A stretch of 64,000 nt of DNA, from the NCBI GenBank assembly GCA_026770705.1, contig JANJGN010000023.1, positions 9,424,001-9,488,000 on the forward strand, written 5' to 3'. The translations under genes were made by a program, and so were the position numbers. Below, one piece after another: positions 1,065 through 24,542 of this stretch (positions are counted from its first letter, which is position 1; each line of letters starts with the position of its first letter). The notes below the pieces were generated by a model. That model saw nothing but the letters and a program-made list of their open reading frames with translations. It was not told the DNA's origin and made no database searches. The stretch comes from Isurus oxyrinchus (taxonomy: Eukaryota).

Positions 1065-2113
1065 GTGAGGAAGACCAGTCAGTCAATCTTTGGTTCTAAG
1101 TATGACCACCAGTCCCCGGTCCCTAACACGTTAAAACATCTAGCAGTGGGTTTTTGCATCTGCTGCCCTCTCAAGAGGTCCACTAATAAAACTCTTACCA
1201 CTCTTAGCTTTGAAATTGTCAATTGGGTTGACCACTCATTGTCTGAAGACCTTCCCAATGTCAATCCTGCATTTGTCTTTCACTAATTTGTATCCTTGTC
1301 CAAATGTCACTATAATTTGAATTAGTGCTCCAAATTAACCCTTTCGATACTCTTTACCAAATTATGTATCACATTAGAATCCCATCTTTAGTTAGCAAGG
1401 TTGATTGGTCCTGTTTTTTCTGTTATAATTCCTCCTGTCTGGTCCTGTTTGGTTTATTGGGTATGGAAGATTGTAAAGGAATATTTTAACCCCCTATCAA
1501 ATCTCCCCTTAACCTGCCCTGCTGCAAGGAGATCAACCCCAACCTCTCTGTGCACCCGAAGTCATCAACCCAGCCTCCATTCTGGTAAATCCCTCCTCCG
1601 CCTTCCTTGATATCCAAGCCATGACATCCATCCTAAAGTTTTTAAAATAAATAGATAGTTGACTGGAGCAGCATTTGTCTAGCTAGGTAGGTCTTCATTC
1701 AGTAGGGATGTAATCAAGCATATGCGCACACACCTGATGATTCAAAGTGACATTCTAGCTCTACCTCTTTTATTCCAACCACAGCCCCTGTCATCCTGAC
1801 CATGATTTGCTGACTCTATGGTGCTATATGTGCAGTACCACAAAAGGGGAGCTATGGTTTTGCTGCATGGTGTGTATCCTGTACCATTGCAAATAGCTAG
1901 CTTTTGTAACTCGACATTTCTTCAATTTCCACCCCCATCTCTAAACTTCTTAAATTTGCATCCTCCCCCTACCCTTAGGCCTTGCATTTCCTTCCCATTT
2001 CCATCCCTTTCCTTTCCCAAATCGTATTCATTGTTCTACTTATTCACTGTTCCGAGTATGAGCGGTGTTAATTAGCTCCTGTCTTCTCATTTCCATCATT
2101 GGCCTCTGTGGAT

Positions 2114-3350
2114 GCTGGTGTGAGGTTGGGGGTGGGGGGGGTGAGTGGACGGCTGGTGTGAGGTTGAGGGTGGGGGGGTGAGTGGACGGCTGGTGTGAGG
2201 TTGGGGGTGGGGGGGTGAGTGGACGGCTGGTGTGAGGTTGGGGGTGGGGGGGTGAGTGGACGGCTGGTGTGAGGTTGGGGGTGGGGGGGTGAGTGGACGG
2301 CTGGTGTGAGGTTGGGGGTGGGGGGTGAGTGGACGGCTGGCGTGAGGTTGGGGTTGGGGGGGTGAGTGGACGGCTGGCGTGAGGTTGGGGGTGGGGGGGG
2401 GTGAGTGGACGGCTGGCGTGAGGTTGGGGGTGGGGGGGTGAGTGGACGGCTGGCGTGAGGTTGGGGGTGGGGGGGTGAGTGGACGGCTGGCGTGAGGTTG
2501 GGGGTGGGGGGGTGAGTGGACGGCTGGCGTGAGGTTGGGGGTGGGGGGGTGAGTGGACGGCTGGCGTGAGGTTGGGGGTGGGGGGGTGAGTGGACGGCTG
2601 GCGTGAGGTTGGGGGTGGGGGGGTGAGTGGACGGCTGGCGTGAGGTTGGGGGTGGGGGGGTGAGTGGACGGCTGGCGTGAGGTTGGGGGTGGGGGGGTGA
2701 GTGGACGGCTGGCGTGAGGTTGGGGGTGGGGGGGGTGAGTGGACGGCTGGCGTGAGGTTGGGGGTGGGGGGGTGAGTGGACGGCTGGCGTGAGGTTGGGG
2801 GTGGGGGGGTGAGTGGACGGCTGGCGTGAGGTTGGGGGTGGGGGGGGGTGAGTGGACGGCTGGCGTGAGGTTGGGGGTGGGGGGGGTGAGTGGACGGCTG
2901 GCGTGAGGTTGGGGGTGGGGGGGTGAGTGGACGGCTGGCGTGAGGTTGGGGGTGGGGGGGTGAGTGGACGGCTGGCGTGAGGTTGGGGGTGGGGGGGGTG
3001 AGTGGACGGCTGGCGTGAGGTTGGGGGTGGGGGGGGGTGAGTGGACGGCTGGCGTGAGGTTGGGGGTGGGGGGGGTGAGTGGACGGCTGGCGTGAGGTTG
3101 GGGGTGGGGGGGTGAGTGGACGGCTGGCGTGAGGTTGGGGGTGGGGGGGTGAGTGGACGGCTGGCGTGAGGTTGGGGGTGGGGGGTGAGTGGACGGCTGG
3201 CGTGAGGTTGGGGGTGGGGGGGTGAGTGGACGGCTGGCGTGAGGTTGGGGGTGGGGGGGTGAGTGGACGGCTGGCGTGAGGTTGGGGGTGGGGGGGTGAG
3301 TGGACGGCTGGTGTGAGGTTGGGGGTGGGGGGGTGAGTGGACAGCTGGTG
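2114..3350 (+). repeat. G-rich minisatellite, ~38-nt unit (GCTGGYGTGAGGTTGGGGGTG(7-9)TGAGTGGACG), about 32 copies
   Basis: Directly visible tandem array. Unit length varies about 37-40 nt through the G-run. Confidence 0.97.
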
Positions 3351-4131
3351 GTGTTCAGTTTGGTTGAAATGCAGTTGCCAACGTCTCCACCTCTGATGAA
3401 GGGAAACTGAGAGAACCATATCAACACAACGTGATTGAACATGTTAAAAGGGACTTTCATGAAAAAGCAGCTGTGACAATATTCTCCCTCTGGCTTGCAT
3501 TCATAAAATCCAACAGTGTCTGGTCACCTCACTGCGATGCAAGAAAACTTTTTCCAGACTTGCTGGGCGTTTGGGGGGGTGGGGTGGTGTGGGGAGAAAG
3601 AAATTCTGGAACCGTAGGGAAGATTTACAAGATCGTGCTGGAAGAACATTAGGGGCCATTTGGGTGTCATGACCCTTGTGCTTTGGGAAAAATTCTAAAT
3701 TTTCTTTGTGAGCTGTCCCTTTACGTCCAAAGTGAAACTAAGATAATTCTGGAATATGAGGCTAATTGGACTTCTTGGATATGACATCATTAGATTTTGA
3801 GAAGTTAACCTCCGGCTGGGGTTGCTATGGAACTGAAGCAAAGGATAAATTGACAGTTAATTGGGATATTGAATTACAGCTTGGGTTCTACAAAGGGTGT
3901 AGGACACGGTTGCAGAAAACAAAGACACAGACACAGGTCCTGGTGAAGAAGCAGAGAGAAGTTTCTTGAGAATAGGACAGGGACTGTGACGCTGTGGAAC
4001 ACTTCTTCGTGTTGAATCACCTCTTCAAAATTTAGAGACAAAAGCATATTTTCGATGCTTCATTTTGAAGCCTTTGCTACAATAATGCAAGTTGTTCCCA
4101 AACCCTGTTTAATTCTCTTGCCTTTATTCAG

Positions 4132-4211
4132 GCTACCAGCAACATCAGGAGCCCCAATCCCAAGACTACACTCCGCCCGCTGCCCCATGTGCCCCACCTT
4201 CCTCAACAGGG
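4132..4211 (+). CDS. LASP1: LASP1 penultimate exon (Q/P-rich linker)
   Basis: Acceptor ctcttgcctttattcag, donor GGG|GTAAGT. 80 nt, phase 1 in and phase 0 out. Translates (G)YQQHQEPQSQDYTPPAAPCAPPSSTG, comparable to LASP1 VYQQPQQQP...PAAP...GGG, and bridges the flanking exons in frame. Confidence 0.9.
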
Positions 4212-4254
4212 GTAAGTTCTTGTTTGAACCCTCTAACTGTTCTGTGGGTAAGAA

Positions 4255-5010
4255 GTAACTTGCATTTCTATAGCATCTTGCACCAAAGTTCAGCCCAGTC
4301 AGTCAACAGCTATTGTAATGTTGGAAATGTAGCTACCGATTTTAGCAAGATCCCACAAAGAGCGATGAGAGAAAGAAGCAGATACCTATTCTTGTGATGG
4401 CTGAGGGATAAATATTGACCAGAATACTGGGCAGATTACCCCAGCTGTTTTTTGAAATGGTGTCATGGGATCTTTCTCATCCACCTGAATGGGTGAACGG
4501 GGGCTCGGTTCAATGTCTCATCTGAAAGACAGCACCTCTGACAGTGAAGCATGACTGCACTGGAAATGTTAACCTGGATTAACAGATGCACAGAAGCAGT
4601 GGGGTGTACCATATGCAAGAAGCAATTGAGCAAGACCCCTTTGACAGTGGCTTCCAAATTCGCCACCACTACCACCTCGAAGGACAAAGGCAGCAAATGC
4701 ATGGGAACACCAACACCAAGTCACACACCATCCTGACTTGGAAATACATGGCTGTTCCTTCACTGCCGCTGGATCAAAGTCCTGGAACTCCCTCCCTAAC
4801 AGCACCGTGGGTGTACCTACACCACATGGACTGCAGTGCCTCAAGAAGGTGGCTCACCACCACCTTCTCAAGGGCAATTAAGGATGGGCAAAAAATGCGA
4901 CTTAGCCAGCGATGCTCTCACTGCATTGAAATAATAGAAAAAAATGTCCTCCAGTCTCCAGAATGGGACTTGAACCCATGCATTTAGAGGTAAGAATGTT
5001 ACCCCATGAG
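4255..5010 (-). mobile_element. Deu-domain SINE (SacSINE1-like) interrupted by a LINE 3' fragment at ~4575-4935 (+)
   Basis: Deu-type core on the minus strand (gagggataaatattgaccag). The inserted piece ends with caccaccttctcaagggcaattaaggatgggcaa, the LINE tail shared with 11640-11955 and 15890-16835. Confidence 0.65.
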
Positions 5011-5179
5011 CTGTGGATGTTACTTGAAGCACTTGAAGAGTGGTCATTTAGTGAGGGTCCAGATGGTTAACTTCACCCATGGAACTGTAATGGGAGAGTG
5101 GGCAATGTGTGTGTGATGGTGGGTGGGGAACTAAACGACTCCTTTGATAATCTCTCTCTTTTATCCTGTTGTTTGGTAG

Positions 5180-5353
5180 AAGCGATATAGAGCTGTGTAC
5201 GACTATGCAGCAGCTGACGACGATGAGATCTCATTCTTAGATGGCGACTTAATTGTTGATGTACAACAGATTGACGAGGGATGGATGTACGGCACCGTGG
5301 AGAGAACAGGCGACACTGGCATGCTGCCAGCTAACTACGTAGAAGCGGTGTAA
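5180..5353 (+). CDS. LASP1: LASP1 terminal coding exon, SH3 domain
   Basis: Acceptor ...gtttggtag. Translates [57 protein letters not shown], near-identical to the LASP1 C-terminal SH3. Confidence 0.97.
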
Positions 5354-8300
5354 TGGAGCCCAGATCTACGCCTGCTTATGCTTTGGTTATATATATTATA
5401 AATAAATTACGTATGGATCCCAACAGTAATTTGACAAAAATATTAGGTAAAAACAATAATGTATTAAATTGTGGTTCCGATTACATAACATAGCTATTTC
5501 CATTTCTCTGATCTTAGTATTATTGGAATACAGTCAAAATTTTCTTTGGCTTAACTATCCTGAAGAGGGAAAGCTAGTCAGCTGTTGAAGCTTTTCACTG
5601 CTCTGCATTGTCCAACTCCCTTTTTTTTTAATAATCTGACTCTTTGCAGATCCTTAATTTGAAATTCTTGGTTTTGGATTACCGTACTTAATGATTGATT
5701 TGGATAATCTCAAATTAAGCCTCTTTTAGTCACAACTATCCTAGTTACACTGAAGCATGGTTTTTTTTTGCTTGTAAATTGCTGAAATAACTCAAGGTAG
5801 AGCAGGACCAAAATACAGGATTGTTCTCTCGGCTGGAGGGAGAGTTTGAATAAAGTTTGTCAAAAATTCTGTTTGATTCTTCAACTCTAAACCGAGAGTG
5901 AGAGACACAGACACACACCACATGGAGAGACACAGATGCACATAACACACAGAGACACAGACACAATACACACACACACAACACAGAAAAACACACAACT
6001 CAGAGGGACACAGACTCACGGGAGTGCATTGAGAGAGAGAATCACAGACACACAAATAACAGGAAGACTGGATTTCCAGTGTTCAAAATGCTATTTTTTT
6101 TTTTTACCTCATTCTTAATGTGTTAACCTAGTGAGTGAGTGCAGGAACATTATTTGACTGTGTGCGAAGTATCACAGCCAAATTGTTCAGTGGAACTTGT
6201 CCACAATTCTTGTAAAACCAGAAATCTCAATGTATTGTCTCCTACAGATAGTGGACCCTTTTGGCTCTTGCAATTTTTAGGAGAAGTGAAGCAAGCAGGT
6301 TGGAACAAAAAGCCTCCATAACTGTCCTTTTCCTCAAAAATGGCAGTGGATATTATGGACTGGGTGGGTGACTGACATCAGAAGATCAATTGCTCCATGG
6401 AATTGGAGAAGTGGATGAAACCTGCTGCCAATCTTCCCACCCCCACCCCCCCCCGCCCCCCCATCCTAAACCCGACTGTATGAAAAATCAGTCTTTGTTA
6501 CACTCAACTGGTGTAACATTTTGCAATTACAAGATTGGTGTTCCAATAAAACCTGAAAGCTATTTGTCCCATTCAATATGTTTGCAAGATCAGTGATCCA
6601 ACCTTCGGCTGTACATCCAACATCTGCCACTCATTTCAAATCTATGCTGGAGCTTCTTGTTAGTGACACCTGCAAACTCGATCTAATTTGCTATGTTTTT
6701 GTCCCATTTTGAAAATCAGATTTTGAAGCATTTTATGCCATTGAAATGAAACTGTGAAAGGCTCAAGTTGGCTAAAATATGCAACTTGAAGAGAGATGGA
6801 AAGAAAATGGTTAGTCTAACAGGGATTAATGCATGTTGCTTTTGAATCATTACTGTGTTAACTTATAATACTTGGGGCTTTAGTGAGATTGAATCAGTTT
6901 GCTGTGGAAAAGGTTGCCTGAACAACATTTTATCATTCCTATCAAGTAAAGTTGTGCTGACAATGGAGACCTGTCTCCAAACAACTCCCTCCACCACCTG
7001 GGTATTGAGCCAATGGGAACTAGTCTGGGATCTCTTTACACACACTCGCTGTATCTCATTCAGAGACATGAAGAGAGCAGCAGCACCTATCTTGCTGTGC
7101 CCATGTATATGTCCTTTTATGAACTCAGGTGCCAGAAGTGCACCAGCTGCCCTCAGTGGTACCACTATTTCTTAAAAGGTGTCAACAAGTCATTCATTTG
7201 TAAGTTGGCTGTTTTGACTGGTATTATACAAATTAGTTGATCAATTCCTACTTTTGGTTGTGAACATGATGTTGATGGGTTGATTAAATCTCTCAGAAGA
7301 TTGTATTGTATCATCCAAAGCTCTAACAGCTTTCTGCTGTTATGTTCTATAGCAAACTGCCCAGCATCCTTAGAAAGCATTGTAAATCCTCTGAGCATTT
7401 TGAGGTGGAAGCTGGGTTTATTTTGACTGTTTACAGTGAAATAAATATGAGACGGTTGTGCTCTACTGAATAGAATACTGATTAAATGTTGGAACAGTCT
7501 TCAATCAGGTGTCAGCCTTTAATCTAGACCGTGCATCACAAGTACAGAAATATTTTGTAGCAATTGGATAATTGTGTGGAGGGGTGCTGCTCATGTTTTT
7601 GGCTCTAAAAACAGCAAAAGCAATGGAATCCTTATGTGAAATGGCCTACCCTTTATATAACTGGTTAACTGATATGCTGGTAAAGTTCAGGCAGCTAAGC
7701 TAGCGGACCACTGAAGGTATGTACATAAACACAAATGTGTAGACATTCCGTGCCAATATTAATGACTCTTTCAACATTCCATGGAATCAGTACATTAACT
7801 GCTTAGTCTTAACACGCTATTTAATTTGAAACTTGCAGCTGTTATCGCTAATGAATTGGTAGAAAAATTGTGTTTTTATACACCATGCTTATCATGTTCA
7901 GCTTAGAGCTTTTGCTAAAGATGTTATTGAGTTACCCAAGCACCCGCAAAGAGGAAGTATCTGGAATTAGCTTTGGTCTCTGGGTGGCTGGTTTAAAATG
8001 AGGCTAAGTGCAAGGGGAGCAACTGTGTTTAAGCTACAGTTCCATTGACATGTGTTGGTTTGTTGAACTTGAGGTGGGGGGGTGGGGGGCATAAGGTTAA
8101 AGGTATTTCACCGTGAAGTACTCTGGGTTATTCCCAGCCACGGCATATGTCTCAGCAACCCCATCCCTCACACAGCAGCTTACAAGAAGTGGGGTTCATC
8201 AGCAAAGGGAATGTCCTCCTCTATTCATCTTAAATCACCTGGGCTAAGAAAGTGCCATTGATTTGTGTGACATTTTGCAAGACCAACTATACAACGTGCA

Positions 8301-8570
8301 GAATGTTTAAAAAGGAATTGTTGCAAGAATTTGATGATTGATTAGTTAATTAATTGGAAATTAAGAGGATGGTTGGAAATAAATGGTGGTATTAAAGATA
8401 TATATAAGTAATTGCATAAAATACTGGATATCTGTGATTCAGATGAAGCATGTCTTGGCATTTCTGAATTCTTCATTATGATGCTTGCAATTTTTAGGAA
8501 AAAATGTATTTTTGGCATGGTTCTTATATGACAGATTGTCAATAAACTAAATGATGGTAAATAATATGGG
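5354..8570 (+). other. LASP1: Probable LASP1 3' UTR (~3.2 kb)
   Basis: AT-rich stretch with no recognisable TEs after the stop codon. It ends near AATAAA 8541-8546, followed by U/GU-rich sequence; TEs resume at ~8665. Confidence 0.65.
8541..8546 (+). promoter_or_regulatory. Distal polyadenylation signal AATAAA
   Basis: Canonical hexamer at the end of the TE-free region, with downstream GU/U-rich sequence (tgtgttttatt). Confidence 0.55.
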
Positions 8571-8664
8571 ACAATAGTGTGGAATTTATTTATCTAGAAA
8601 TGTGTTTTATTATTGGAACTATTAATCTGTTCAGTTTACGGAAAGTCTATTATTCCTCAGGAGG

Positions 8665-8965
8665 GAAGAACTTGCATTTATATAGTGTCTTGCATCACCT
8701 CAGACGATCCCAAAACGCTTTACAACCAATGAAGTACCTTCTTCAATGTGCAGTTACTTTTGTAACATAGGAATTGCAACAGCCAGTTTGTGCACAAAAA
8801 GCAATGAGATAACAACCAATTAAACTTTTAAACAATTAAGGGAATAAGTATTGGCTAGAACAGAGGGGTGAACTGCCCTGTTCTTTGAAAAAGTGCCAAG
8901 TGATCTTTTATGGTCACCTGAGAATGCACATGATCCCTTGTTTAATGCATTGTCAGAAAGATTGA
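8665..8965 (-). mobile_element. Deu-domain SINE
   Basis: Minus-strand tail (aacttgcatttatatagtg...caatgaagtac) and Deu core. Confidence 0.65.
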
Positions 8966-9679
8966 GACATTAGAATTGATGAAGTATCGTTTTAATTAGG
9001 ATTATATACAATTTATGAGGTTTGGAGAATTTTGGAGAATAAGGTAATTGTGAATTTAATAAATTCACCTCTGACCTCTTGAACCAGAGAAAACATCCAG
9101 CAGGTACAATTTGCTTTGTCTCTTTAAATCTGTGCTGTGTCTGAAGGGGGAGAATTTCAGATTGCAACACAACATGCAGTTTATCACTGGAGTTTGATGT
9201 TGTGAACAATTCGATGTGATGAATTAAGAATATCACACGGGAAGTTCATCATCTTCACCAGACAGAGATGAGGAAGACCTTTTGAGCTTATCCTAGCTCA
9301 ACCAACAGAACACTACATACATGGATCACAACATCCGATTGGTCCTTAACTGGTGCCAGGATTTTTCACACCCCTGGCTATACACTTTTTTAAAAAAAAA
9401 TCTGAAGTAGGTGCTCATAGCTGTTCAAATTTGTCTTTTGCCTATTTGAACCTGTGCCCAGTGTCTTAGCTGAATTGATCCAAAATCATCTATTATAAAA
9501 TCATCTAATTAAAGAAGCACCACTGAGATCTTCTCATGTAACTTTTAAAGTTGAAAAGTCCTTTCCAGCCTTCTAACTTTGTCTTTGGCTATTGGTGCTC
9601 ATTCTTTAACTATGCCTGGTTTAATAAAAAAAAAAGCTTGTATTTCACATTCCAGGGCTTTCACAAAAAAGTGCTGACT

Positions 9680-9830
9680 CAACTGGAATTCTGAAATAGA
9701 AAGAAAAGATGCTGGAATACTCAACAGGTCTGGCAGCACATGTGGAGAAACAGTTACTGTTTCAGGTCAGAGATTAGGTTCTGATGTAGAATAATTGAGC
9801 TAAAACATGAATCGATCCTCTCTCAGACTG
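9680..9830 (-). mobile_element. Old Penelope-like terminal fragment
   Basis: gctggaatactcaacaggtctggcagca motif shared with the Penelope 3' terminus. Confidence 0.5.
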
Positions 9831-10135
9831 CATGACTTGCAAAGTACCTTTGAGCTGTAATCACTATTGTGATATAGGAAATATGGCAGTGATTTGTGCG
9901 CAATAAGCTCCCACAATCAGTAATGTGAAAATGACCAGATTTTTTTAATGTTGTTGTTTGAGGGATTAAATATTTGCAGGTCATGGGGAGAACTTGCCTG
10001 CTCCTTTTCAAAATAGTGCATGGAATCTTTTACATTCACTGAGAGAAACAGTGCCTCTGTTTAAATGTGTCATATGAAAGACAGCACCACTGACAGTGCG
10101 GCACTCCCTTTGTACTGCATTGCAGTGTCAATCTA
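9830..10135 (-). mobile_element. Deu-domain SINE
   Basis: Deu core and gacagtgcggcactccct head motif on the minus strand. Confidence 0.65.
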
Positions 10136-10995
10136 GAAGGCAGCAAGATTCCACAACTCACTTCCTCTCAACTCCAGGCTCTGATCTGAAACTGAGAAAA
10201 TTTTCTGCATCAGGAAAAACCCTTTTAAGTGAATTAAAAGAAGGTTTTCTAAAAAAAAAATCACAATTCTCTGAATCAATTCACTTCAGCCAGAGAGTAA
10301 CAATACTGTTACTGGGGTGTGGGTTGGGGAAGGAATGAAGGGGAACTGTTCAGTGGGTATGGGTGCTGAAGTGGTCAGTTGCCAAAGCTACCATGTTGGT
10401 AGCTGGGTCAATGTGTATGCTGCAATACAAACTTAATTCAATAGTACATCTGTCAATGTGATAACGTTATGGCATTGTCCCCTCTAAGCAAGATTACTGG
10501 GATGGTGGGAAGCTACAGTTAGCCCCAGCACACTGGGTTTTGGGGAGGGGGGGGATCATCCTCGATGTTGATCCTGATCAATATTCTGTGATAGTTGTTG
10601 GAAAGTGGCTTGTGTGGATGTTGAGTGAGTAGACTGAGCTTCCATTGACATCTTTTAGTGCTGTGCATCATCCAAAACTATGTGTTGGCCCTGTGCATTA
10701 TCTGAATTTGGGAGTGTTGACCTGTGAATCATCTGAACTCAAGTATTGATAAATGGATGAATTAAAATTAAATAGTCTTCCTCACCATGTGATTTTATGG
10801 GACTTATGATCATATTGGGTGTCTGTTATTTGCATCATTTACTACTTTGTTTTTTATGCCTATAACTCCTTCCCGTTTTCCTCCTCTCCCCTCCTCAACT
10901 GAAGCTGCTGACTCCTGTTCAGGTTCAATCCCACAGGAGCTGACAGTCCTCCTATATTACTGCCCATATCTGTGTTTCAACACGGTGTGTAAGAG

Positions 10996-11364
10996 ATAAA
11001 AACAAAAAACTGCGGATGCTGGAAATCCAAAACAAAAACAGAATTACCTGGAAAAACTCAGCAGGTTTGGCAGAGAAGAAAAGAGTTGACGTTTCGAGTC
11101 CTCATGACCCTTCGACAGAACTGAGTGAATATTAGAAGAGGGGTGAAATATAGGCTGGTTTAAGGTGGCGGGGGGGGGGGGGGGGGGTGGTGGCGGTGGT
11201 GGTGTGGTTGTAGACAACCACACCACCCCCCCCACCCCACCTTAAACCAGCTTATATTTCACCCCTCTTCTAAGATTCACTCAGTTCTATTGAAGGGTCA
11301 TGAGGACTCAGCATCAACTCTTTTCTCCGCTGATACTGCCAGACATGCTGAGTTTTTCCAGGTA
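10996..11364. mobile_element. Penelope-derived foldback (two inverted copies of the element terminus)
   Basis: Left arm is the reverse complement of the right arm around a G/C-rich centre. 14-bp TSD ac(g/a)gtgtgtaagag at 10982-10995 and 11365-11378. Confidence 0.85.
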
Positions 11365-11639
11365 ACAGTGTGTAAGAGGCTGTTTGACTCTGGGGGTGCC
11401 ACCAAAAGCAACAAGTTGCATTTATATTGTGCCTTTAACTTAGTGAATGACCCAAGGTGCTCCACAACAGCATAATCGGGCTGGTATTGGCAGTGAGGCA
11501 AAGAAAGATATTTAGATTGGCCAAGCTGCTGCTTACCAAAGAGGGAGGCTTTCAGGAGTACCTTAAAGGAAAGAGAGGTAGGGAGGTTTAGGGAGGGAAT
11601 ACTAGAACTTAGAGGCTGAATAGCTGAAGATGAGGCTCC

Positions 11640-11955
11640 TTGGACAGTATCTTCCAAACCCACAACCACTACCATCTGAGAGATAAGGGCAGCAGATACA
11701 TGGGAACACCACCATCTGGAGGTTCCCCTCCAAGTCACTCACCATCCTGACTTGGCAATGTATCGCCATTCCTTCATTGTCACTGGGTCAAAATCCTGGA
11801 ACGCCCTTCCTAACAGCACTGGGTGTACCTACTATGCCACATGGACTGCAGCGGCTTAAGGCAGCTCACCACCACCTTCTCAAGGGAAATTAGGGATGGG
11901 CAATAAATGTTGGCTTAGCCAATGAAGCCCACATTCCTTGAACAAATTAAAAAAG
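11640..11955 (+). mobile_element. LINE 3' end (CR1/L2-clade family sharing its tail with a SINE)
   Basis: Similar to 16560-16835; ends in gggatgggcaataaatg...cccacattcc plus an A-rich tail. Confidence 0.65.
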
Positions 11956-12049
11956 AAAGGAAGTGGTGGAGGCACATGAGGTTAGGATTGGAAGAACAGA
12001 GACACAGCCCAGTCTGGTCCTGTATTCTTCCTACATCCCCCCCTCCCCC

Positions 12050-12395
12050 TTCTTAGGCTGCCCCTTGGTTCCACTCTGGTTTGATGGGTTCTGAGGCGGC
12101 TGATATGTCCACTGCATGAGCTGCAGACTCTGCCGCACACGGGATGGGGTGATATTGGAGGATTGGGTAGATGGGTTGTTTGGAAGTTCGTGCGTTCCCT
12201 CCAATGTCGCGACTTCACATCTGCACGTTCCCTGCGAATTCTGTCGAAGTGTTCCGTGCCTTCCTGTCACAAGCCAAGGACCCCCATGAGTCAGCGATTA
12301 CATTTGTCTAATTCAGGGATGCTTTGAGGACATCCCTAAAAGCTTTCCTGTCCTCCTGGGAGTCTCCTGCTGCGACCTGGTTCCAAGTAGATCCT
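12050..12395 (-). mobile_element. RTE-clade LINE 3' fragment
   Basis: Minus-strand translation includes FRDVLKASL...DSWGSLACDR and a C-terminal zinc-finger-like VCGRVCSSCSGHISRLRTH, typical of RTE ORF ends. Confidence 0.6.
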
Positions 12396-12543
12396 ACACA
12401 CTAACAGGGATCGTGGACATTGATTGAGGGTAGCAACCCTGGCAGATTTCCTTATCGAGGCCATTTCTCTTGTGGCTCTTGTTAACTTCAAGGCATAATG
12501 CACTTCCCTCCCCATGCACTTGGCGTCTCACTTGTCTTCCACA

Positions 12544-12564
12544 CCCCGCCCTCTCCCTTATTAA
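12544..12564 (+). promoter_or_regulatory. Candidate core promoter of the micropeptide gene (GC box plus TATA-like element)
   Basis: CCCCGCCC at 12544-12551 and TATTAA at 12559-12564, about 75-95 nt upstream of the ATG. Confidence 0.4.
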
Positions 12565-12637
12565 TCTGAAAACGGGGTCATTATTGGGGAAGGCAGTGTA
12601 TTCACTGTCCTCCCGTCTCTCTTTCAATCTGTTCACA

Positions 12638-12715
12638 ATGCTGGATGTCTTCCTGCTGATGCTTTTTGCCATTGTGAGTTTAGTGATCCTTTCCTACATC
12701 ATCTACGTCCTGTGA
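12638..12715 (+). CDS. LASP1NB: 25-aa hydrophobic micropeptide, probable orthologue of LASP1 neighbour (LINC00672)
   Basis: ATG in ACAATGC context; [25 protein letters not shown]. Same length and ungapped match to my recollection of human LASP1NB ([25 protein letters not shown]). Same strand as, and just downstream of, LASP1. Candidate donor CAG|GTTTGT after 12811. Confidence 0.85.
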   Translation: [25 protein letters not shown]

Positions 12716-13307
12716 GACATGGCAGCAGCAGCAACCGGGGATCTGACAAACCTGGAATGCGGAGGCTGTTGGAACCGTGAGAGATGGCTGGCATTACACA
12801 TTTTCCAACAGGTTTGTGTAAAATATTGTTCAGTAATCATTTCTGCAGATTTTCAAACAGCTTACGTCAGTGCAAATAAAAATCCTGGAATTGCAAATTG
12901 CTTTAAAAAAAAAACCCTCGTCTGTTTGCAAACAAAGGAGCTTTAAATGCAAAGAAAAATCCTACGATTTTTGTCCCTTTTTTTGAGTTGGGTTTTATTT
13001 CGGGCAACAGATTTTGTCCTAAAGATCTAATTGGGAACAATGATGTCACCGGCTTTCATTTGTCTTTATTTCGTTCTTGTTTGGACAAATACCAATTTAA
13101 CCCGGAAATGGGGATTGACAGCTGGGAGAGCTAATTAAAGAATGGAGCTGACAACATTCACCCAATAAGCAGAAGCGAGATCTTCAATTCTGGTCCAATC
13201 TGCGGGATCTTATAGCTGAGGATTTGCCTCTTGAGTCTTAAAGGTGTAGGCACGTCCCCATCAGTGCAGAGAGCGATGCCAATTTGGAAACGTCTCGTTT
13301 TGTGATT

Positions 13308-13525
13308 AAAATAAAAACTGAAGAGGCTGGAAAAGCTCAGCAGGTCTGGCAGTATCTGTGGAGAGAGAAACAGAGTTAACGTGTATGACCCTTCTTCATA
13401 TGGACTCGAAACGTTAACTGTCTTTCTCACTGCACTTGCTGTGAGACCTGCTGAGTATTTCCATTTCTCTCTATTTTTATTTCAGATTTCCAGCGTCCGC
13501 CATACGTAGTTTGCTTTTATTTCAA
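13308..13525. mobile_element. Older Penelope-derived foldback
   Basis: gctcagcaggtctggcag arm inverted relative to the gacctgctgagtatttcc arm; centre contains ggactcgaaacgttaac. Confidence 0.65.
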
Positions 13526-14004
13526 CCTAGTCTATAACCTCCTCACTTACATTCATGACCTCCTTCCCCAGCCATGGACTCTGTCTTGTTCTAGAAAGTA
13601 TCTGGTGTATTTTTCTGTCTCATGTGCTTCTTCAGCTTTTGTACAGATGATACCATGATACCCCCCCACCCCCACCCCCACTCCCACTCTGCTGAGTCAA
13701 TCACTTCCCCCTTACCCTCTCAGTCAGCTGCTTTACTTCAGTGTCAGCTGCGGCTTGCCTCTGTCCAGAATGTTGTGCGTTCGAATCTCACTCCAGAGAC
13801 CTAAGAAGCCAAGCTTTTGGTCAGCTGCCCTAATATCTCCTTGTGAGGCTTGGTGTCAGATTTTGTTTGATAATGCTCCTGTGAAGTGCCTTGGGATGTT
13901 TGCTACATTAAATGTGCTATATAGTAGCACATTGTTTTTGATGGTGGCTGCACACACAATGTCTTGGTCCACCACCTTGGCACAATGATAAATATGGACT
14001 ATAA

Positions 14005-14339
14005 ATATTTTTTCTTTATTCTTTCACGGAATGTGGGCATCACTGGCAAAGCCAGCATTTGTTGCCCATCCCTAATTGCCCTTGAACTGCACATTTCAGA
14101 GGGCAGTTACGAGTCGACCACATTGCTGTGGGTCTGAAGTCAATTGTCGGCCAGACTTCCTTCCCTAAAGGACATTAGTGAACAAGATGGGTTTTCACAA
14201 CAATCAACGATAGGCTCATGGTCACCATTACTGAGACTAGATTTTTAATTCCAGATTTATGCAATGGTGGAATTTGAATCCATGTCCCCAGGGCATTAGC
14301 CTGGGCCTCCAGTTTCATTATCTAGTGACATTGTGCCAC
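14005..14339 (-). mobile_element. tRNA-derived SINE with LINE-like tail, split by the LTR element (remainder ~30574-30586)
   Basis: Same family as 18148-18478 and 33070-33345. Its head end (...gccac|catctcccc) resumes after the distal LTR. Confidence 0.7.
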
Positions 14340-15410
14340 TGTTACCGACAGGAGGATGTTTAGTTTAATCAGCCCTAATTCCTCCTCTCACCACCCATTC
14401 GCAACAGGTGTTTTGATTTTGATTTCTCCCTTTACAAGTGGTGGCATATTTCCCAACCCCTCAGTTTTTGTGTGATCCAATTTTTATTAATAATTGCACA
14501 GCATACTCCAGGCAGGGTTATCTCAGAGAGTTCGTTTATTCTCACACACTCAAAACACAGGTGGGATGTGTCGCTATGTAGCCCCCTGTGCATTCATACA
14601 ATAAAAGAGGGGTAGAGAAATAAAGATTTACAGTGCAAAAACCACCAAGGAAAGAATTACTGTTTCATGTGAGTCCAGAGTCCAGAATTGAAGTCCAATG
14701 GTGTATTCCTTCACTGAGATTGGCAGGTTGAAGACTGATTCTGGATAATTCACTTTCTCAGAAGAGATGAGTTCCACGATGGGATAGGCAGTTAGACATG
14801 AATTAGTCTTGTGGACGATGGTGTAGATGTTCGGAAGTGTAGATAGGAGCAGGCATTCAAACCTGGACAGAGCCCTTTTTCTAAGATGCTGCCTCCTAGA
14901 TGGATGACGGCAGACTGAGCTTTGCAGATCCACAAGGCAATATTACAGGTTCTTCCAGCTAGAGGGGAGGGGGGAGGGAGTCATGTCACATGACTTCTAC
15001 CTCTCCACTTTGGTTTTGAGAAGGGTGTATATTCCTTTTTCTGGGCTCCTGATATTGTTAATGTTCCAACCATTAATAATTACAAAGGAAGGTTATAGGG
15101 CTTTTTGTCCTAGCAGATTAATAGACCCCAGTGGCCAGGCCTGACTTATGAAATGTAGATGACCTTTGTACAATTCCTGTTGAATTTAGTCTCTGCAGTT
15201 CACAGTCGTTAGTGTTTCTTCAGAGATAATGAGATGCAAATTCCTTTGATACTACTAGATTAGCTCCTATTGTTCGAAGGTCACAGCCAAGCATGGCTTC
15301 AATCATTTTAGAAAGGTCTTTGACCAGTTATAATATTATCAGAAGTAGCCATGATGCTATATATATATATATTTCATAAAAATATAGTGTGAGGCCTTAG
15401 CTCCATTACA
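14340..15410 (-). repeat. 3' LTR of the Gypsy element
   Basis: Colinear similarity to 29483-30573 over its full length. Confidence 0.88.
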
Positions 15411-15889
15411 TCTTTCACGGCCTTGGAAAAAAACAAATTAATTCTATTTCTTTTTTTCATGTAGTCTTTTGAAGGAAGAATAGGAAGTGAAGAAGTATAG
15501 GTGCATTCTCTCATTCATACTGGCACATCGGACACACAGCCAGTAGGGGCATTGGCTGCTCCCTGCTGCATTTTCTTTTTGATCTTTAAACCTGGGTCAG
15601 TGCATCAGCAAGAACATTGTCCGGTCCTGGGATGTGGAAGTTTCAGGTGACTTGGGATCTTTCAAAATTCATCTTTATGGGGAAGCCTATTCAGGGCTAG
15701 AGTAGTGAATTTTCTCTGTTGGGGACCAGGCATAGACAAAGCCATCGGTTTCAGAACTCTGCCTGTCCAACTCCTGATTAAATGTCTTCAAAAGGGCCTG
15801 GGAATTTTACAGGGTGATTAGCACTCAGGGGACGAGTGATGGTCAAGCTGCTCTGGGTGATCCACAGGGGAGTGCAGGGCATCTCCCCT

Positions 15890-16835
15890 AACATTCATGC
15901 CACACAAGTGCCAGGCAATGACCATCTCCAAGAAGAGAGAATCTAACCATTGCCCCTTGATGTTCAGTGGCATTACCATTGCTAAATCCCCCACCATCAA
16001 CATCCTGGGGGTTACCATTGACCAGAAACTGAGCTGGACTAGCCATATAAATAAAAGCAAAGAACTGCGGATGCTGGAAATCCAAAACAAAAACCAAAAC
16101 AAAAATACCTGGAAAAGCTCAGCAGGTCTGGCAGCATCGATGGAGAGGAATTCTGTTGAAGGGTCATGAGGACTCGAAACGACTCCTCTCCATCAATGCT
16201 GCCAGACCTGCTGAGTTTTTCCAGCTATTTTTGTTTTTGTTTTTATGTAGCCATACAAATACTGTGGCTACAAGAGCAGGTCAAAGGCTAGGAATCCTGT
16301 GGTGAGTAACTCACCTCCTGATTCCCCAAAGTCTGTCCACCGTCTACAAGGCACAAGTCAGGAGTGTGATGGATTTCTCCCCACTTGCCTGTAATAGTGC
16401 AGCTCCAACAACACTCAAGAAGCTTGACACCATCCAGAACAAAGCAGCCCCGCTTGATTGGTACCACATCCACAAACATTCACTCCCTCCATCACTAATG
16501 CACAGTAGCAGCAGTGTGTACCATCTACAAGATGCACTGCAGGAATTCACCAAGGGTCCTTCGACAGCACCTTCCAAACCCATGACCACGACAAGGGCAG
16601 CAGACACTTGGGAACACCACCAGCTAGAAGTTCCCCTCCAAGTCCTTCAGCATCCTTACTTGGAAATATATCGCCGTTCCTTCACTGTCAGTGGGTCAAA
16701 ATCCTAGAACACCCCTCCTAACAGCACGGTGGGTGTACCTACACCATGTGGACTGCAGCAGTTCAAGAAGGCAGCTCAACACCACCTTCTCAAGGGCAAC
16801 TAGGGATGGGCAATAAATGCTGTGAATGAATAAAA
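15890..16835 (+). mobile_element. LINE ORF2 3' fragment, interrupted by a Penelope foldback at ~16055-16246
   Basis: Translates INILGVTIDQKLSWTSHIN and TLKKLDTIQNKAA. The foldback is flanked by TSD tagccata(t/c)aaata. Confidence 0.75.
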
Positions 16836-18013
16836 GAACCTCACTCAGTGAGTGCCAGATTTTTTGATCGGAGGGCTGAATGGCTGTTGTCCAGCTTAGC
16901 TCCTCCCTCTCCACCTTGGTAACATGTAGGTTCATTTGTTCACACCCAGGGACTGTGGTTATGTTGATTGTCAGGAGATTGGGGCGTTTTGAAGGGGCTT
17001 GAAGGGATTCTGGCTCAGTGTCCGGTTCAGGTGCTAGCACAACTGGGGTGTTCCAGCTTCTGCTGCCTGGTGCTGTGGGTTGGCACAGCAACAGGTGGGC
17101 AGTTGGCTCCTGAAGGTGGACTAGCCTTTCTGGGCCCTGATAATAGGGAGTTGGCCTGCTGGCAGGGGCCCCTCCCACATCCTTACCAGGTAGGGCTGCA
17201 GTGCTGTAGCCTGTGGGATGTCATGGATCATTTTAAATATGGTGGTAACCCTGTTAGTCACCTTGCGATTCTGTATTAAGGTGGGCGAGCATGGGGTCCA
17301 ATCTAGTTGGTCAGTTGGGTCAGTGCCTTTTTGGACACTACTGCCTTCTGGTGGTTTTCAGCTAAGTGAGTCATCACCTCAATCTTTCTGGGTCAATTTG
17401 GGAAATATCCTGGTTCACATTTAAATTTGCCATAAAGCTGTCAGCTAAACCAATCATTGGCTTCCTCTTCTGGGCCTTTGCCTTTGGAGAGGGCACTCTC
17501 CTAACTGGTCCCATGTCCCCTGGATCACCTCTGCCCTCAAGTGGAGGTACGGCTCCAGCCACACTCCCTTGTGGCTTTTCAGCTGAGGGAGGCATCTCAC
17601 TCGCTATCTGCTTGCTTGTTTGGATGCTCCCTTTGTCCATAATTATTGCTGGAAAGAAGGTTTCTGCTAGCCATTCTTCAGGCAAGTCCTTAACCTTTTC
17701 CTATCGGGCTTAATAACCCGTGTTCCTTCAGGCTCTTTGGCCATGTGGGGCATCTCATTCATTATTTCTTTCCCTGCTCTGGGACTTCTCTGCTTCCTAT
17801 TTAATCCTGAGATACCCTGTTTTAGATTCTCGTGGCCTTACCTGGACCTCTTTTAACTTTACCGGCTGGGTTTCAGCCTTGGTACATTCAGGCAGCCTTC
17901 ACTCAATATTTACGGGCGCAATTTCACCCTTTTTGTGCCTCTGGGACCTTCCTCAGCTTTCTGCTCGCCTGCAGGTTTCTGCTGGTTGGTGTTGGCCTCT
18001 TTTCTTTAGCTGG

Positions 18014-19068
18014 CTAATTCTTGCTGCCAGCCAAATTGTCCCCAAGGAGGAAAGCGGTTCCCACTACTGGTAGCTCAGGGACAATTCCCACTGTGACAGG
18101 GCCTGAAACAAGGTTGCACTCTAGATGGACCTGATGGAGGGGGTGCATTCTCTGGGGACATGGGTTCAAATCCCACCACGGCAGCTGGTGGAATTTAAAT
18201 TCGGTACATAAAACCTGGAATTGAAAGCTAATCTCAGTGATGGCGACCATGAAGCTTTCATCGATTGTCATTAAAAAAACCCACCTGGTTCACTAATTTC
18301 CTTCAGGGGAGGAAACCTAGCATCCTTACCTGGTCTGGTCTGCATGTGACACCAGACCCACAACAATGTGGTTGGCTCTTAACTGTCCTCTGTAGTGGCC
18401 GAGCAAGCCATTCGACTCAAGGGCAAGTTGGGATGGGCAACAAATGCTGGCCTTGCCATGAAAGAATGAAAAAAAACACAGATCTTCCTTCTACTCCACT
18501 GATCAGTACTTTGGCTTTCAGTGCACTGCCTGCTCTGCTGCACTACCCCACTGGGGCGTCCTTCGGGGGAACTACTCATATGGAGCCCTATTGGACCAAC
18601 AGGCCTCCCATGCAATCTCCAGCACTCAGGTCTGGAAAGGCCTATTTTATTGCCACACCGGTCTTGGAGGGTGGGATTCTCCTTTTGGGCTGCAAGGGGA
18701 GATTCTCACACCCTCTTTTGTGGTTTCTTTTCCTGGTTGGGTGGGGGGGGGGCCTCTCCTAACTAAATCACCCTACTTATCTTTCCAATGCTCACGGGAA
18801 TGGTTTGGGAAGGGTCTGCCTGAGTTTTCAGGCTTATAGCTGAGATCATAGCTGCCTGCTGTGACAGCTGCATCCCTCGCTGTGGGGTTTCTCTGCCCCT
18901 CTAGGTGTATTCGCAGGTTGGAGGGGAAGCAATTTTTGAATTTCTCCAACAATACCAACTCATGCAACCCCTCATAGGTGCATGGGATTCTTAGGGACCT
19001 TACTCATCGGTCAAATGCGATTTGTTTCAGCCTCGTTCAAACTCGATGTAGGTTTGTGTGGGCCTCTT
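18014..19068 (-). pseudogene. Gypsy gag C-terminal capsid and protease-adjacent fragments (SINE inserted at 18148-18478)
   Basis: KRPTQTYIEFER, ELVLLEKFKNCFPSNLRIHLEG...ARDAAVTAGSYDL and HLECNLVSGPVTVGIVPELPVVGTAFLLGDNLAG resemble Gmr1-like Gypsy polyproteins; stops and frameshifts present. Confidence 0.75.
18148..18478 (+). mobile_element. tRNA-derived SINE with LINE-like tail
   Basis: B box GGGTTCAAATCCC; tail gggatgggcaacaaatgctggcc plus A-rich end. Confidence 0.75.
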
Positions 19069-21334
19069 ACAAGTGCACCTAGGACTGAGTGCGTGCAGTT
19101 GTTGGGCTCAATGAAGTATACTTTGAGCGAGAGGTGAGCAGGAGAGGATAAAAGGTGTGGATCGAGAGGCCTACCCGCAGTGAGACCAGCGGTGGAGTGA
19201 CGTCACTAACCACAATGTGATGCAGGGAAAGCAGCTAATTGGTGAGTAGGATTGATGAGGTCTCTAACCTTTTTTTTCTCTCTTCTTAGAAATAATTTCT
19301 TAAGTATGAGATCGATACTGGCGTAAAAAAAATTAATTGCAATAAAGTGTAAAGAGCGGGGGATTCTTCAAGTGTAAAGTGGAAGGAAACCAGAGTAATT
19401 AATTAATAAATTTAATTAAAAATGATAGTGATGGCAGGATGGGTGATGTGTTGCTGCTGCAGCATGTGGGCACTGCTGGACCCCAAAGTGATCCAGAACG
19501 AACACATCTGTAGCAAGTGTTTGCCGCTCTGGGAACTTCAGATCTGAGTTGAAGAGCTGGAGTCTGAGCTGCAGACATTGCGCCACATCAGGGAGGGGGA
19601 AAGTTACCTGGACACTTTGCTGCAGGAGGCGATCACATCCTTCAGATTAAGTAATTCAAATTTGGTTTGTGATGAGGGACAGGAGGGTGTGACTGCAGGT
19701 GAGGCAGGTATGGGGACCTAGAGGTAGCATTCGAGGATCCTCGGACCCTGCACCTGTCCAACAGTTACAAGGTTCTTGCAAGCTGTGTGAACAAGAGTGG
19801 GGACTGCAGGGAGAATGAGTGAACTGACCACGGCACAGTTGTACAGGGAGCCATACAAGTTGGGGGAGGAAATTAGTTTGTAGTAATGATAGGGGTCAGT
19901 ACAATTAGGGGGATAGATACTGTTCTCTGCTGCCGTGAGTGTGAGTCCCAAAGGCTGTGTTGCCTGCCCGGTGCCAGGGTTAAGGACATCCCCTTAGGGC
20001 TGGAGAGGAACTTGGAGTGGGAGCGGAGAGATCCAGTTGTCGTCGTCCACGTTGGTACCAATGACATTAATAGGACTAGAAAGGAGGTTCTGCTGAAAGA
20101 ATTTGAACAGTTAGGAGCTAAATTAAAAAGCAGAACCTCCAAGGTAATAATCTCGGGATTACTACCTGAGCCACGGGCAAACTGGTATAGGGTAAATAAA
20201 GTCAAGGAGTTAAAAGCGTGGCTCAAAGATTGGTGTGGGAGGAATGGGCTTCAGTTCATGCCACCACCAAACACATCTTCCCTTCACCCCCCGGCGGCAT
20301 TCCGTAGGGATTGTTCCCTCCGGCATACCCTGGTCCACTCCTCCATCACCCCCTACTCCTCAATCCCCTCCTATGGCACCACCCCATGCCCACGCAAAAG
20401 ATGTAACACCTACCCCTTCTCTTCCTCTCTCCTCACCGTCCAAGGGCCCAAACAGTCCTTTCAAGTGAAGCAGCATTTCACTTGCATTTCCCCCAACTTA
20501 GTCTACTGTATTCGTTGCTCCCAATGCGGTCTCCTCTACATTGGAAAGACCAAACGTAAACTGGGCGACCACTTTGCAGAACACCTGCGGTCTGTCTGCA
20601 AGAATGACCCAAACCTCCCTGTCGCTTGCCATTTTAACACTCCACCCTGCTCTCTTGCCCACATGTCTGTCCTTGGCTTGCTGCATTGTTCCACTGAAGC
20701 CCAACGCAATGTAGAGGAACAACACCTCATCTTCCGACTAGGCACTTTACAGCCTTCCGGACTGAATATTGAATTCAACAATTTTTGGTCTTGAGCTCCC
20801 TCCTCCATCCCCACCCCCTTTCTGTTTCTTCCCCCTTCCTTTTGTTTTTTCCAATAATTTATATAGATTTTTCTTTTCCCACCTATTTCCATTATTTTAA
20901 AATATTTTTAAATCTTTTATGCCCCCCCACCCCCACTAGAGCTATACCTTGAGTGCCCTACCATCCATTCTTAATTAGCACATTCGTTTAGATAATATCA
21001 CCAACTTCAACACCTCTGTGTTCTTTTGTTCTTTTGTCTGTGACATCTTTTGATGATCTGCTTCTATCACTGCTTGCTTGTCCCTCCACTTCTCTCCTCC
21101 CACCCCCACCCCCCACATACCTTAAAGCAACTTATATTTCACCCCTTTCCTTGGATTCACCTAGTTCTGTCGAAGGGTCATGAGGACTCGAAACATCAAC
21201 TCTTTTCTTCTCCGCCGATGCTGCCAGACCTGCTGAGTTTTCCCAGGTAATTCTGTTTTTGTTTTGGATTTCCAGCATCCGCAGTTTGTTGTTTTTATCT
21301 CTGTGTTTAATTGACTGCCACTGCTCTTCAAGAA

Positions 21335-24090
21335 ATGCCTACCTCCTTGAAAAAGTTCTGTTCTTTTCTGCAACAAGATTTCCGTATCTCTCTGTTGCCT
21401 TGTTCACCTTCTTTGCTTTCCATTTCTCTCCTGGTGTTTGACAAGGTGTTTACTAAAACCTGCTTTCACAGCCATATTTCCTTTCTCAGTGACTGTCTCC
21501 GTCTCCAACTTACCCCACCTGGATTTCAACTGAAATTCCACCCCTCATGTTTTGAACACACCCAGGATTACCGGTATCTCCGGGACATAAAACGTTTCTT
21601 GGACTGCTGTTCCTGTCACATTCTGAGATCCACACTCAGTGCCATGCGTCGCCATATGAACACACTAGGCCTCTCCCTCCAGCAGCACCGCCGTACCCTT
21701 TTTCAAAGCTGCGCGTGCCCCCAGTTTCATTTTATTCTTTGTCTCATCCGACGCCTCAACAAGAAAATTTTTCTCTTTCTCTCAAGTGCTAAGGAACGCA
21801 AGCTCCAACAACTCATCGACACCAACACCCATCTAGGACCCTCCACCCCAGCCTGTCCCTCCGTCCCCACCCCATCTTCCAATCCCAGCCCCAGCCGTGT
21901 ATTCACTATACCCCCTGACCTTCCCCTCTCCGATGCTGAACGTTCAGTGCTCAGCAAAGGACTTAGTTTCATACCCTTACGCCCTCACCTCAATGAATTT
22001 CGGGCTCGGCATGATACTGAACTCTTCTTCCGCCGTCTTCGTCTCCGTGCTCACTTCTTTGGGCAGGACTCCTCTCCCCATTCAACGGATCCTTTTACCC
22101 ATCTCCAATATTCTCCCTCCACTGGACCCCTCCCTCTGGATTCTTACCTTCTCTTGATCTTTTCATTGAGAACTGTCGGCGCGACATTAGTCGTCTCAAT
22201 TTCTCTGCTCCTCTCACCCATTCTAATCTCTCTCTCTCTGAACTTACTGCACTCCGTTCTCCCAGGTCCAACCCTAACATTGTCATCAAACCCGCTGACA
22301 AGGGTGGTGCTGTTGTTGTCTGGCGCACTGACCTCTACCTCGCGGAGGCTGAGCGTCAACTCGCAGACACTTCCTCCTGCCTCTCCTTGGACCATGACCC
22401 TACCACTGAACATCAAGCCATTGTTTCCAGGACTGTCACTGACCTCATCTCCTCTGGGGATCTTCCTCCCACAGCTTCCAACCTGATAGTCGCCCAACCT
22501 CGGACGGCCCGCTTCTACCTCCTACCCAAAATCCACAAACAGGACTGTCCCGGTAGACCGATCGTCTCAGCTTGCTCCTGCCCCACAGAACTCATTTCTC
22601 GTTATCTTGACTCCGTTCTCTCTCCCCTTGTCCAGTCCCTTCCCACCTACATCCGTGATTCCTCTGACACCTTACGTCACATCAACAATTTCCAGTTCCC
22701 TGGCCCCAACTGCTTCCTCTTCACCATGGACGTCCAATCCCTCTACACCTCCATCCCCCACCAGGATGGTCTGAGGGCCCTTAGCTTCTTCCTCGAACAG
22801 AGGCCCGAACAATCCCCATCCACCACTACTCTCCTCCGACTGGCTGAACTTATTCTCACACTGAACAATTTCTCCTTCAACTCCTCTCACTTCCTCCAAA
22901 TAAAAGGTGTGGCTATGGGTACCCGCATGGGCCCCAGCTATGCCTGTCTCTTTATGGGGTATGTGGAACATTCCTTGTTCCAGTCCTACTCCGGCCCCCT
23001 TCCACAACTCTTTCTCCGGTACATCGATGATTACTTCGGTGCCGCTTCATGCTCTCGTCAGGACTTGGGAAAAATTTATTAATTTTACTTCCAATCTCCA
23101 CCTCTCCATCATTCTCACATGGTCCATCTCTGACACTTCCCTTCCCTTCCTTGATCTCTCTGTATCAATCTCTGGTGATAGACTGTCCACCAATATCTAT
23201 TACAAGCCTACTGACTCCCACAGCTACCTCAACTACAGCTCCTCACACCCCGCTTCCTGTAAGGACTCCATCTCATTCTCTCAGTTCCTTCGCCTCCGTC
23301 GCATATGTTCCGATGATGCTACCTTCAAAAACAGTTCCTCTGACATGTCCTCCTTCTTCCTTAACCGAGGTTTTCCACCCACGGTCGTGGACAGGGCCCT
23401 CAACCGTGTCCGGCCCATCTCCCGCGCATCTGCCCTCACGCCTTCTCCTCCCTCCCAGAAACCTGATAGGGTCCCCCTTGTCCTCACTTATCACCCCACC
23501 AGCCTCCGCATTCAAAGGATCATCCTCCGCCAACTCCAGCATGATGCCACCATCAAACACATCTTCCCTTCACCATCCCCCCCCCCCAATTGGCATTCCG
23601 TAGGGATCGTTCCCTCCGGGATACCCTGATCCACTCCTCCATCACCCCCTACTCCTCAATCCCCTCCTATGGCACCTCCCCATGCCCATGCAAAAGACGT
23701 AACACCTGCCCCTTCACTTCCTCTCTCCTCACTGTCCAAGGGCCCACACACTCCTTTCAAGTGAAGCAGCATTTCACTTGCATTTCCCCCAACTTAGTCT
23801 ACTGTATTTGTTGCTCCCAATGTGGTCTCCTCTACATTGGGAAGACCAAACGTAAACTGGGCGACCACTTTGCAGAACACCTGCTGTCTGTCCACAAGAA
23901 TGACCCAAACCTCCCTGTCGCTTGCCATTTTAACACTCCACCCTGCTCTCTTGCCCACATGTCTGTCCTTGGCCTGCTGCATTGTTCCAGTGAAGCCCAA
24001 CGCAAACTGGAGGAACAACACCTCATCTTCCGACTAGGCACTTTACAGCCTTCCGGACTGAATATTGAATTCAACAACTTTAGGTCGTGA
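21335..24090 (+). pseudogene. Penelope RT plus GIY-YIG endonuclease ORF, frameshifted (~22125, ~23068, ~23590)
   Basis: VIKPADKGGAVV, FYLLPKIHK, MDVQSLYTSIP, GVAMGTRMGP, LRYIDD (RT); NLVYCICCSQCGLLYIGKT (GIY-YIG). Confidence 0.92.
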
Positions 24091-24503
24091 GCTCCCTCCT
24101 CCATCCCCACCCCCTTTCTGTTTCCCCCTTCCTTTTGTTTTTTCCAATAAATTATATAGATTTTTCTTTTCCCACCTATTTCCATTATTTTTAAATCTTT
24201 TTAAATCTTTTATGCTCCCCCCACCCCCACTAGAGCTATATCTTGAGTGCCCTACCATCCATTCTTAATTAGCACATTCGTTTAGATAATATCACCAACT
24301 TTAACACCTATGTGTTCTTTTGTCTGTGACATCTTTTGATGATCTGCTTCTATCACTGCTTGCTTGTCCCTACAACCACACCACCGCCCTCCACTTCTCT
24401 ACCCCCACCCAAACCGCTCCGCCCCCCACCACCACCCCCACCCCCCACCCCCCACCTCCCACCTTAAACCAGCTTATATTTCACCCCTTCCTTGGATTCA
24501 CCT

Positions 24504-24542
24504 AGTTCTGTTGAAGGGTCATGAGGACTCGAAACGTCAACT
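24504..24542 (+). ncRNA. Minimal type-I hammerhead-ribozyme-like motif (variant core) in the Penelope terminus
   Basis: AGTT-CTGTTGA-A-GGGTC-ATGAG-GACTC-GAAACGTC-AACT: stem I AGTT/AACT, stem II GGGTC/GACTC, GAAA, palindromic ACGT. Penelope-like elements are known carriers of minimal hammerheads. Confidence 0.55.

Follow-up and report, generated by a model that had tools for sequence, protein, structure and literature searches.

The window, by which we mean the whole 64,000-nucleotide stretch of shark DNA analysed here, contains the 3′ part of LASP1 and, downstream on the same strand, a spliced gene whose first exon holds a complete 25-codon ORF. The features are as follows.

~914-1039 and 4131-4211 (+), earlier LASP1 exons
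5180-5353 (+), last coding exon of LASP1 (SH3 domain)
5354-8564 (+), LASP1 3′UTR, with AATAAA at 8541
12544-12551 (+), GC box, named in the first-pass annotation
12558-12565 (+), TATA-like box TTATTAAT, probably within the 5′UTR
12553-12811 (+), exon 1 of the small gene, minimum extent, donor CAG/GTTTGT
12638-12715 (+), 25-codon ORF with TGA stop, LASP1NB orthologue
12719-12811 (+), second ATG frame (GACATGG), 31 codons open to the donor
18978-19241 (+), exon 2 (3′UTR), long form, acceptor CATAG/, donor /GTGAGT, intron of 6166 nt
19031-19241 (+), exon 2, short form, alternative acceptor TTTCAG/, intron of 6219 nt
30811-32220 (+), candidate last exon, predicted only, strong acceptors at 30811 and 30905, AATAAA at 32202

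LASP1 and its neighbours

By mapping of a shark LASP1, three of its exons were located in the window. The best PDB match of the last one is the LASP1 SH3 domain (3i35, E 2.7e-30). Among the best 120 of its 435 matches, the identity of this exon is 100% with one shark LASP1, 95–98% with five other sharks, 91–95% with four rays and skates and ≤89% with bony vertebrates, so that the organism is well supported as a shark. Contigs of three sequencing runs end at 8520, 8520 and 8564 in the LASP1 3′UTR, a weak hint that the small ORF belongs to a separate gene. Like human LASP1NB as described in the first-pass annotation, the ORF lies just downstream of LASP1: 4097 nt (4.1 kb) separate the AATAAA at 8541 from its ATG on the same strand. 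Between the two genes, one run (X2) contributed a small piece at 10560-10726, behind which some LASP1 read-through or DNA may lie. The LASP1 3′UTR is 3.2 kb long, and small insertions at 7321 and 8334 separate the sequenced runs from the window. A long G/T-rich tandem repeat (2100-3350, unit ~35 nt) in a LASP1 intron yields spurious proline-rich frames of 430–475 aa on the minus strand.

The contig also carries an RPL23-type exon (−), 165 kb ahead of the window, and, after the ORF, a CACNB exon (−) at 0.87 Mb and an RPL19 exon (+) at 1.1 Mb. This RPL23/LASP1/CACNB/RPL19 arrangement presumably matches the human 17q12 order. A PSI-domain match, sought for the downstream neighbour, was not detected on this contig. 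The 200 kb after the window contained no clear protein-coding gene and mostly repeat-derived frames in a crude ORF listing (150 of 1140 frames, two of them Pfam-scanned).

Transcript structure and gene layout

Of 17 listed runs, three probable RNA runs, each of a different study, and a probable DNA run were chosen, and their contigs were aligned to positions 3400-23300. The RNA nature of the runs was judged probable, and their two organisms of origin show slight sequence differences from the window. Exon 1 was covered by a contig in all three probable RNA runs (X1, 12559-12808; X2, 12577-12809; X4, 12553-12811), and a GT-AG junction was present in two of them. The X2 contig joins 12809 to 18976, equivalent to 12811/18978 after a 2-base shift, and defines the long form of exon 2; the X1 contig joins 12808 to 19028, equivalent to 12811/19031 after a 3-base shift, and defines the short form. 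The X4 piece ends at the donor, with 557 contig letters without placement, and the probable DNA run reads through the donor unspliced. The exon 1 pieces differ from the window by two to three letters, with no gap in X1 and X2 and one in X4; one change is at 12614 in the 5′UTR, and others may fall within the ORF. In the spliced contigs the donor that the first-pass annotation had seen downstream of the ORF is used, at 12811/12812.

The X2 contig runs 451 letters beyond the second donor (19241), so a third exon exists. The candidate at 30811-32220 lies outside the aligned region. Exon 1 comprises at least 85 nt of 5′UTR, the entire ORF and 96 nt of 3′UTR. Its size (at least 259 nt) compares with 272–273 nt for the ORF-holding first exons of mouse and zebrafish, and the stop codon precedes the junction by 96 nt in shark, 91 nt in mouse and 46 nt in zebrafish. 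A whole ORF in exon 1 followed by a 3′UTR intron is therefore a layout common to the three species. The mouse and zebrafish models have two exons in the published tables (PMC4568590), against three or more in the shark transcript; the supplements of that paper (Mackowiak 2015) gave no exon layout for human.

Both upstream boxes that had been noted, the GC box and the TATA-like motif, are present, but the promoter role suggested for them is not supported. The contigs start at 12553, 12559 and 12577, which does not fix the start site, and two of them cover the TATA-like box. Given this coverage and the length of the mouse and zebrafish 5′UTRs (103 and 149 nt), the box is probably transcribed, that is, part of the 5′UTR rather than of a promoter.

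Exon 2 ends ~640 nt before a GDSL-esterase-like frame (19877-20260; PF13472, E 2.4e-7) of a retroelement remnant, and it may be the exonised 5′ end of an element, although the 264 kb compared contain no second copy of it. Other repeats follow in the window. A reverse-transcriptase element in several frames, which we take to be Penelope-like, occupies 21300-24600 (RVT_1 at 22021-23079), and its 3′ part recurs at 20250-21300 and 44280-44700. Fragmented LINE-type ORF2 frames, presumably endonuclease- and reverse-transcriptase-like, are found at 24900-27500 and 37085-38070. Two minus-strand frames of 201 aa (28584-29186) and 108 aa (17377-17700) resemble retroelement or transposon remnants, with no Pfam match. 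No Rfam family was detected in 8500-33000.

The second ATG, 3 nt past the stop codon, would encode 37 or 65 aa when read on into exon 2, and 37, 65, 68 or 104 aa over real or candidate exons. Its strong context could permit re-initiation. Three pieces of this frame were scanned, with no Pfam match and no sign of coding function, and a bicistronic transcript was dropped as unsupported.

The 25-codon ORF and its orthology with LASP1NB

Translation of 12638-12715 confirmed the nearly all-hydrophobic 25-codon ORF described in the first-pass annotation, hidden, as stated there, at the end of a longer non-ATG frame (93 codons from stop to stop, 12434-12715). The start context TTCACAATGC has the A at −3 already recorded, and C at +4. 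The peptide contains one predicted hydrophobic helix (~residues 4–25), and Asp3 is its sole charged residue. Kyte-Doolittle hydropathy is 2.5–2.95 in all 19-residue windows. Among the 836 ATG-started frames of 15–50 aa in the window, the ORF ranks third in hydropathy and its internal-ATG form second, behind a TG-rich simple-repeat frame; of 60 simulated 64-kb windows, one held an ORF of 20–35 aa whose mean hydropathy was ≥2.5. A further hydrophobic ATG frame at 53341-53478 (+; 45 or 37 aa, hydropathy 2.3–2.4) is of repetitive composition and probably due to chance.

The shark peptide was compared by eye with orthologous peptides printed in paper supplements: human (PMC6886504 file 4 and PMC11305224 file 2), and mouse B230217C12Rik and zebrafish linc-lasp1 (PMC4568590 files 11 and 12). 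All four are 25 aa long. The shark peptide is identical to human at 19/25 positions (76%), in keeping with the human match proposed in the first-pass annotation, to mouse at 18/25 and to zebrafish at 17/25. Sixteen of the 25 positions are invariant in the four species, and by eye the changes at the remaining nine are all conservative. The binomial probability of at least 18 matches in 24, given the peptide composition, is ~5e-10. Human LASP1NB (LINC00672; ENST00000583195; UniProt A0A1B0GWH6) likewise has one coding exon and is named for the adjoining LASP1. It differs from shark by six conservative changes, at positions 4, 6, 9, 13, 14 and 24, the one at 14 being Ser in shark for Gly. The mouse and zebrafish genes, like the shark one, place the whole ORF in the first exon before a 3′UTR intron.

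A single match to the ORF was found in the shark genome by protein and a single one by DNA, in searches that scored the best candidates and that distant paralogues could escape. LASP1NB is thus single-copy in the shark genome, with no paralogue to confuse orthology. Sequence, synteny (LASP1 upstream on the same strand) and gene layout agree, and we consider it practically certain that the shark ORF is the orthologue of human LASP1NB/LINC00672. The conservation of length, sequence and synteny expected at the outset therefore extends to shark.

Protein searches with the shark peptide were blank. There was no Pfam match at E≤10, no exact match, no match among 1.84 billion representative proteins or PDB sequences, and none at E≤10 among nine candidates from a set of 5.8 billion proteins (near and longer lengths); the best ESM Atlas score was 0.80, a lead only. 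With a query of 25 residues, these results reflect low sensitivity, not absence: the 5.8-billion-protein search missed even the human protein, despite five 5-residue words in common with the shark peptide. A chance hydrophobic ORF in intergenic DNA, a reading that blank database, family and structure searches would favour, is refuted by 19/25 identity to human at a syntenic place and by spliced contigs.

These data bear on a locus whose coding status is settled in databases. The expectation that it would be newly shown to be coding does not hold, because the coding status had already appeared in print in 2015 and 2019, and HGNC had taken it up. The 2015 study reports one novel 25-aa lincRNA peptide predicted in three vertebrates, with a conserved ORF (Mackowiak 2015; PMC4568590), a statement that fits the linked mouse B230217C12Rik and zebrafish linc-lasp1 rows. 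Its tables give PhyloCSF scores of 376 in mouse and 94 in zebrafish, flag the ORF as without signal peptide, and list 51 assemblies for the mouse ORF with no cartilaginous fish among them. The 2019 table has LINC00672 as a coding gene with conservation in “vertebrates” and a tetraodon model, three sorfs.org/ribosome-profiling entries, no peptide support, and expression in human and mouse brain (Mudge 2019; PMC6886504). The HGNC entry gives the change from LINC00672 to LASP1NB as due to a change of biotype to protein coding, and UniProt A0A1B0GWH6 has the status “protein predicted”.

No functional study of the peptide (partner, location or knockout) was found in the part of the LASP1NB/LINC00672 literature covered, and no report of a shark LASP1NB, although shark annotations and preprint supplements may already carry the gene. 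In the supplements of a zebrafish micropeptide screen (PMC10188112), the two of four “lasp1” places shown are clasp1a. The shark copy thus confirms the coding status and does not overturn it. New here are (i) a cartilaginous-fish LASP1NB, (ii) the shared gene layout, and (iii) a marginal sign of a conserved helix face. The minimum age of the gene moves from bony vertebrates to the jawed-vertebrate ancestor, and the shark peptide, as the most distant member seen, helps to sort invariant from exchangeable residues for mutagenesis.

A putative accessory membrane helix

Conservation and hydropathy suggest a functional single-pass membrane micropeptide, as first proposed for this ORF. We favour, with a probability of roughly 0.55, a model in which the peptide acts, probably in neurons, as one membrane helix docked onto a larger membrane protein. 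The separate spliced gene downstream of LASP1 would encode the 25-residue peptide, with translation beginning at the first ATG of exon 1. Peptides shorter than the ribosome tunnel insert post-translationally, and the LASP1NB peptide would be freed before its helix emerges and then enter the membrane. One helix would span the bilayer, Asp3 lying at one membrane surface and Tyr20/Tyr23 at the opposite one. An invariant face (Leu7/Met8, Ala11, the small residue at 14, Leu15, Leu18, Ser19, Ile22 and Leu25) would pack on a partner helix, and the interchangeable aliphatic residues would face lipid. The larger protein that carries the partner helix, for instance a pump, a channel, a transporter or an enzyme complex, would be tuned or stabilised in this way. 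The probable neuronal site rests on the brain expression in human and mouse and on the mouse gene, which sits in the largest neuronal co-expression cluster in the published data. RE1 matches in the window did not rise above chance (17 against 11.7 expected, none near exon 1).

The conservation exceeds what hydrophobicity alone needs, and the shark peptide has no soluble domain for another role. At the variable positions (4, 5, 6, 9, 13, 14, 16, 17 and 24) only hydrophobic or small residues are exchanged, and their strongest periodicity is at 95–100 degrees, the alpha-helical repeat. In a permutation test on these four related sequences p was 0.044 (residues 4–25, 100 degrees), against 0.057–0.22 in seven other range or angle settings; p reached 0.022 only when Gly/Ser14 was counted as conserved after the fact. 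This is suggestive of one conserved helix face, with one packing side and one lipid side.

Such a face would also fit self-association into a homo-oligomeric bundle, a pore or a lipid-shaping helix. Positions 7, 11, 14, 18, 21 and 25 form, by eye, a heptad of invariant or small residues, and phospholamban and DWORF oligomerise according to a review. We nevertheless consider self-association unlikely as the mode of action: the shark peptide has no GxxxG or small-xxx-small motif, and a pore would have just two serines to line it. In the known peptides, moreover, oligomerisation is mostly secondary to the partner interaction.

Slightly less probable is that the RNA or the act of translation matters, with LASP1 repressed in cis and the ORF setting RNA turnover through the 3′UTR intron (NMD). 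Reviews describe a p53-induced LINC00672 that recruits hnRNP F/H to repress LASP1, the linkage to LASP1 is kept, and the effects published for LINC00672 are ascribed to RNA, which counts against a peptide mechanism. That literature, in the papers covered, treats the transcript as non-coding, and the text of one overexpression study makes no mention of a peptide. The distance from stop to junction in shark and mouse exceeds the 50-nt rule, and the stop, being codon 26, sits on the border of a start-proximal NMD-free zone (21–23 to ~100 codons) described in a preprint. However, the zebrafish distance falls short of that rule, and no p53 site stood above chance in the window (14 matches against 21.4 expected, none near exon 1). 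An RNA role also needs neither the amino-acid constraint seen in PhyloCSF (376 in mouse, 94 in zebrafish) nor 76% identity between shark and human. The two roles could coexist.

That LASP1NB is a regulin-type peptide acting on SERCA is improbable. It belongs to the same size class and has the single-helix build, and pTUNAR, a neural peptide outside the regulins, is reported to act on SERCA2. The shark peptide, however, lacks the xLFxxF motif, an Asn equivalent to PLN Asn34 or SLN Asn11 and a basic cytosolic segment, and has no Pfam match at E≤10.

Cells often route very hydrophobic C-terminal tails to degradation. Yet a peptide that has a minor role, being broken down or freed as a signal-like fragment, is a still more doubtful account: conservation argues otherwise, and the 2015 tables flag no signal peptide. 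The lack of mass-spectrometry support in the 2019 table would agree with a disposable product, but the missing spectra are explained by the lack of Lys and Arg in this all-hydrophobic 25-mer, from which trypsin yields no peptide.

The docking helix can be extended to a fuller account, which we hold tentatively and with the odds against it: a neuronal accessory subunit whose length of 25 residues goes back unchanged to the jawed-vertebrate ancestor, which docks through one invariant face, and whose mRNA the conserved 3′UTR intron keeps at the NMD threshold. Some effects of LINC00672 cDNA overexpression (autophagy, tumour suppression) would then be due to the peptide. If the peptide has a neuronal partner, results from LINC00672 overexpression call for an ATG-mutant control.

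Precedents exist for such a partner-docking helix. SERTM2 has been reported to bind TASK1, and pTUNAR to bind SERCA2 without a regulin motif. Both are neural, conserved, lncRNA-annotated and single-pass, and we regard them as functional analogues, with no sequence relation claimed. Unlike for LASP1NB, their partners are shown. SERTM2 and pTUNAR have extramembrane segments. The regulins (PLN, SLN, MLN, ELN and ALN) and DWORF are, like LASP1NB, tiny single-helix membrane peptides, several of them encoded by former lncRNAs. The shark peptide, in contrast, has no xLFxxF motif, no Asn, neither the Pro kink nor the GxxxG of DWORF (it contains no Pro or Gly), and no basic or phosphorylated N-terminal segment.
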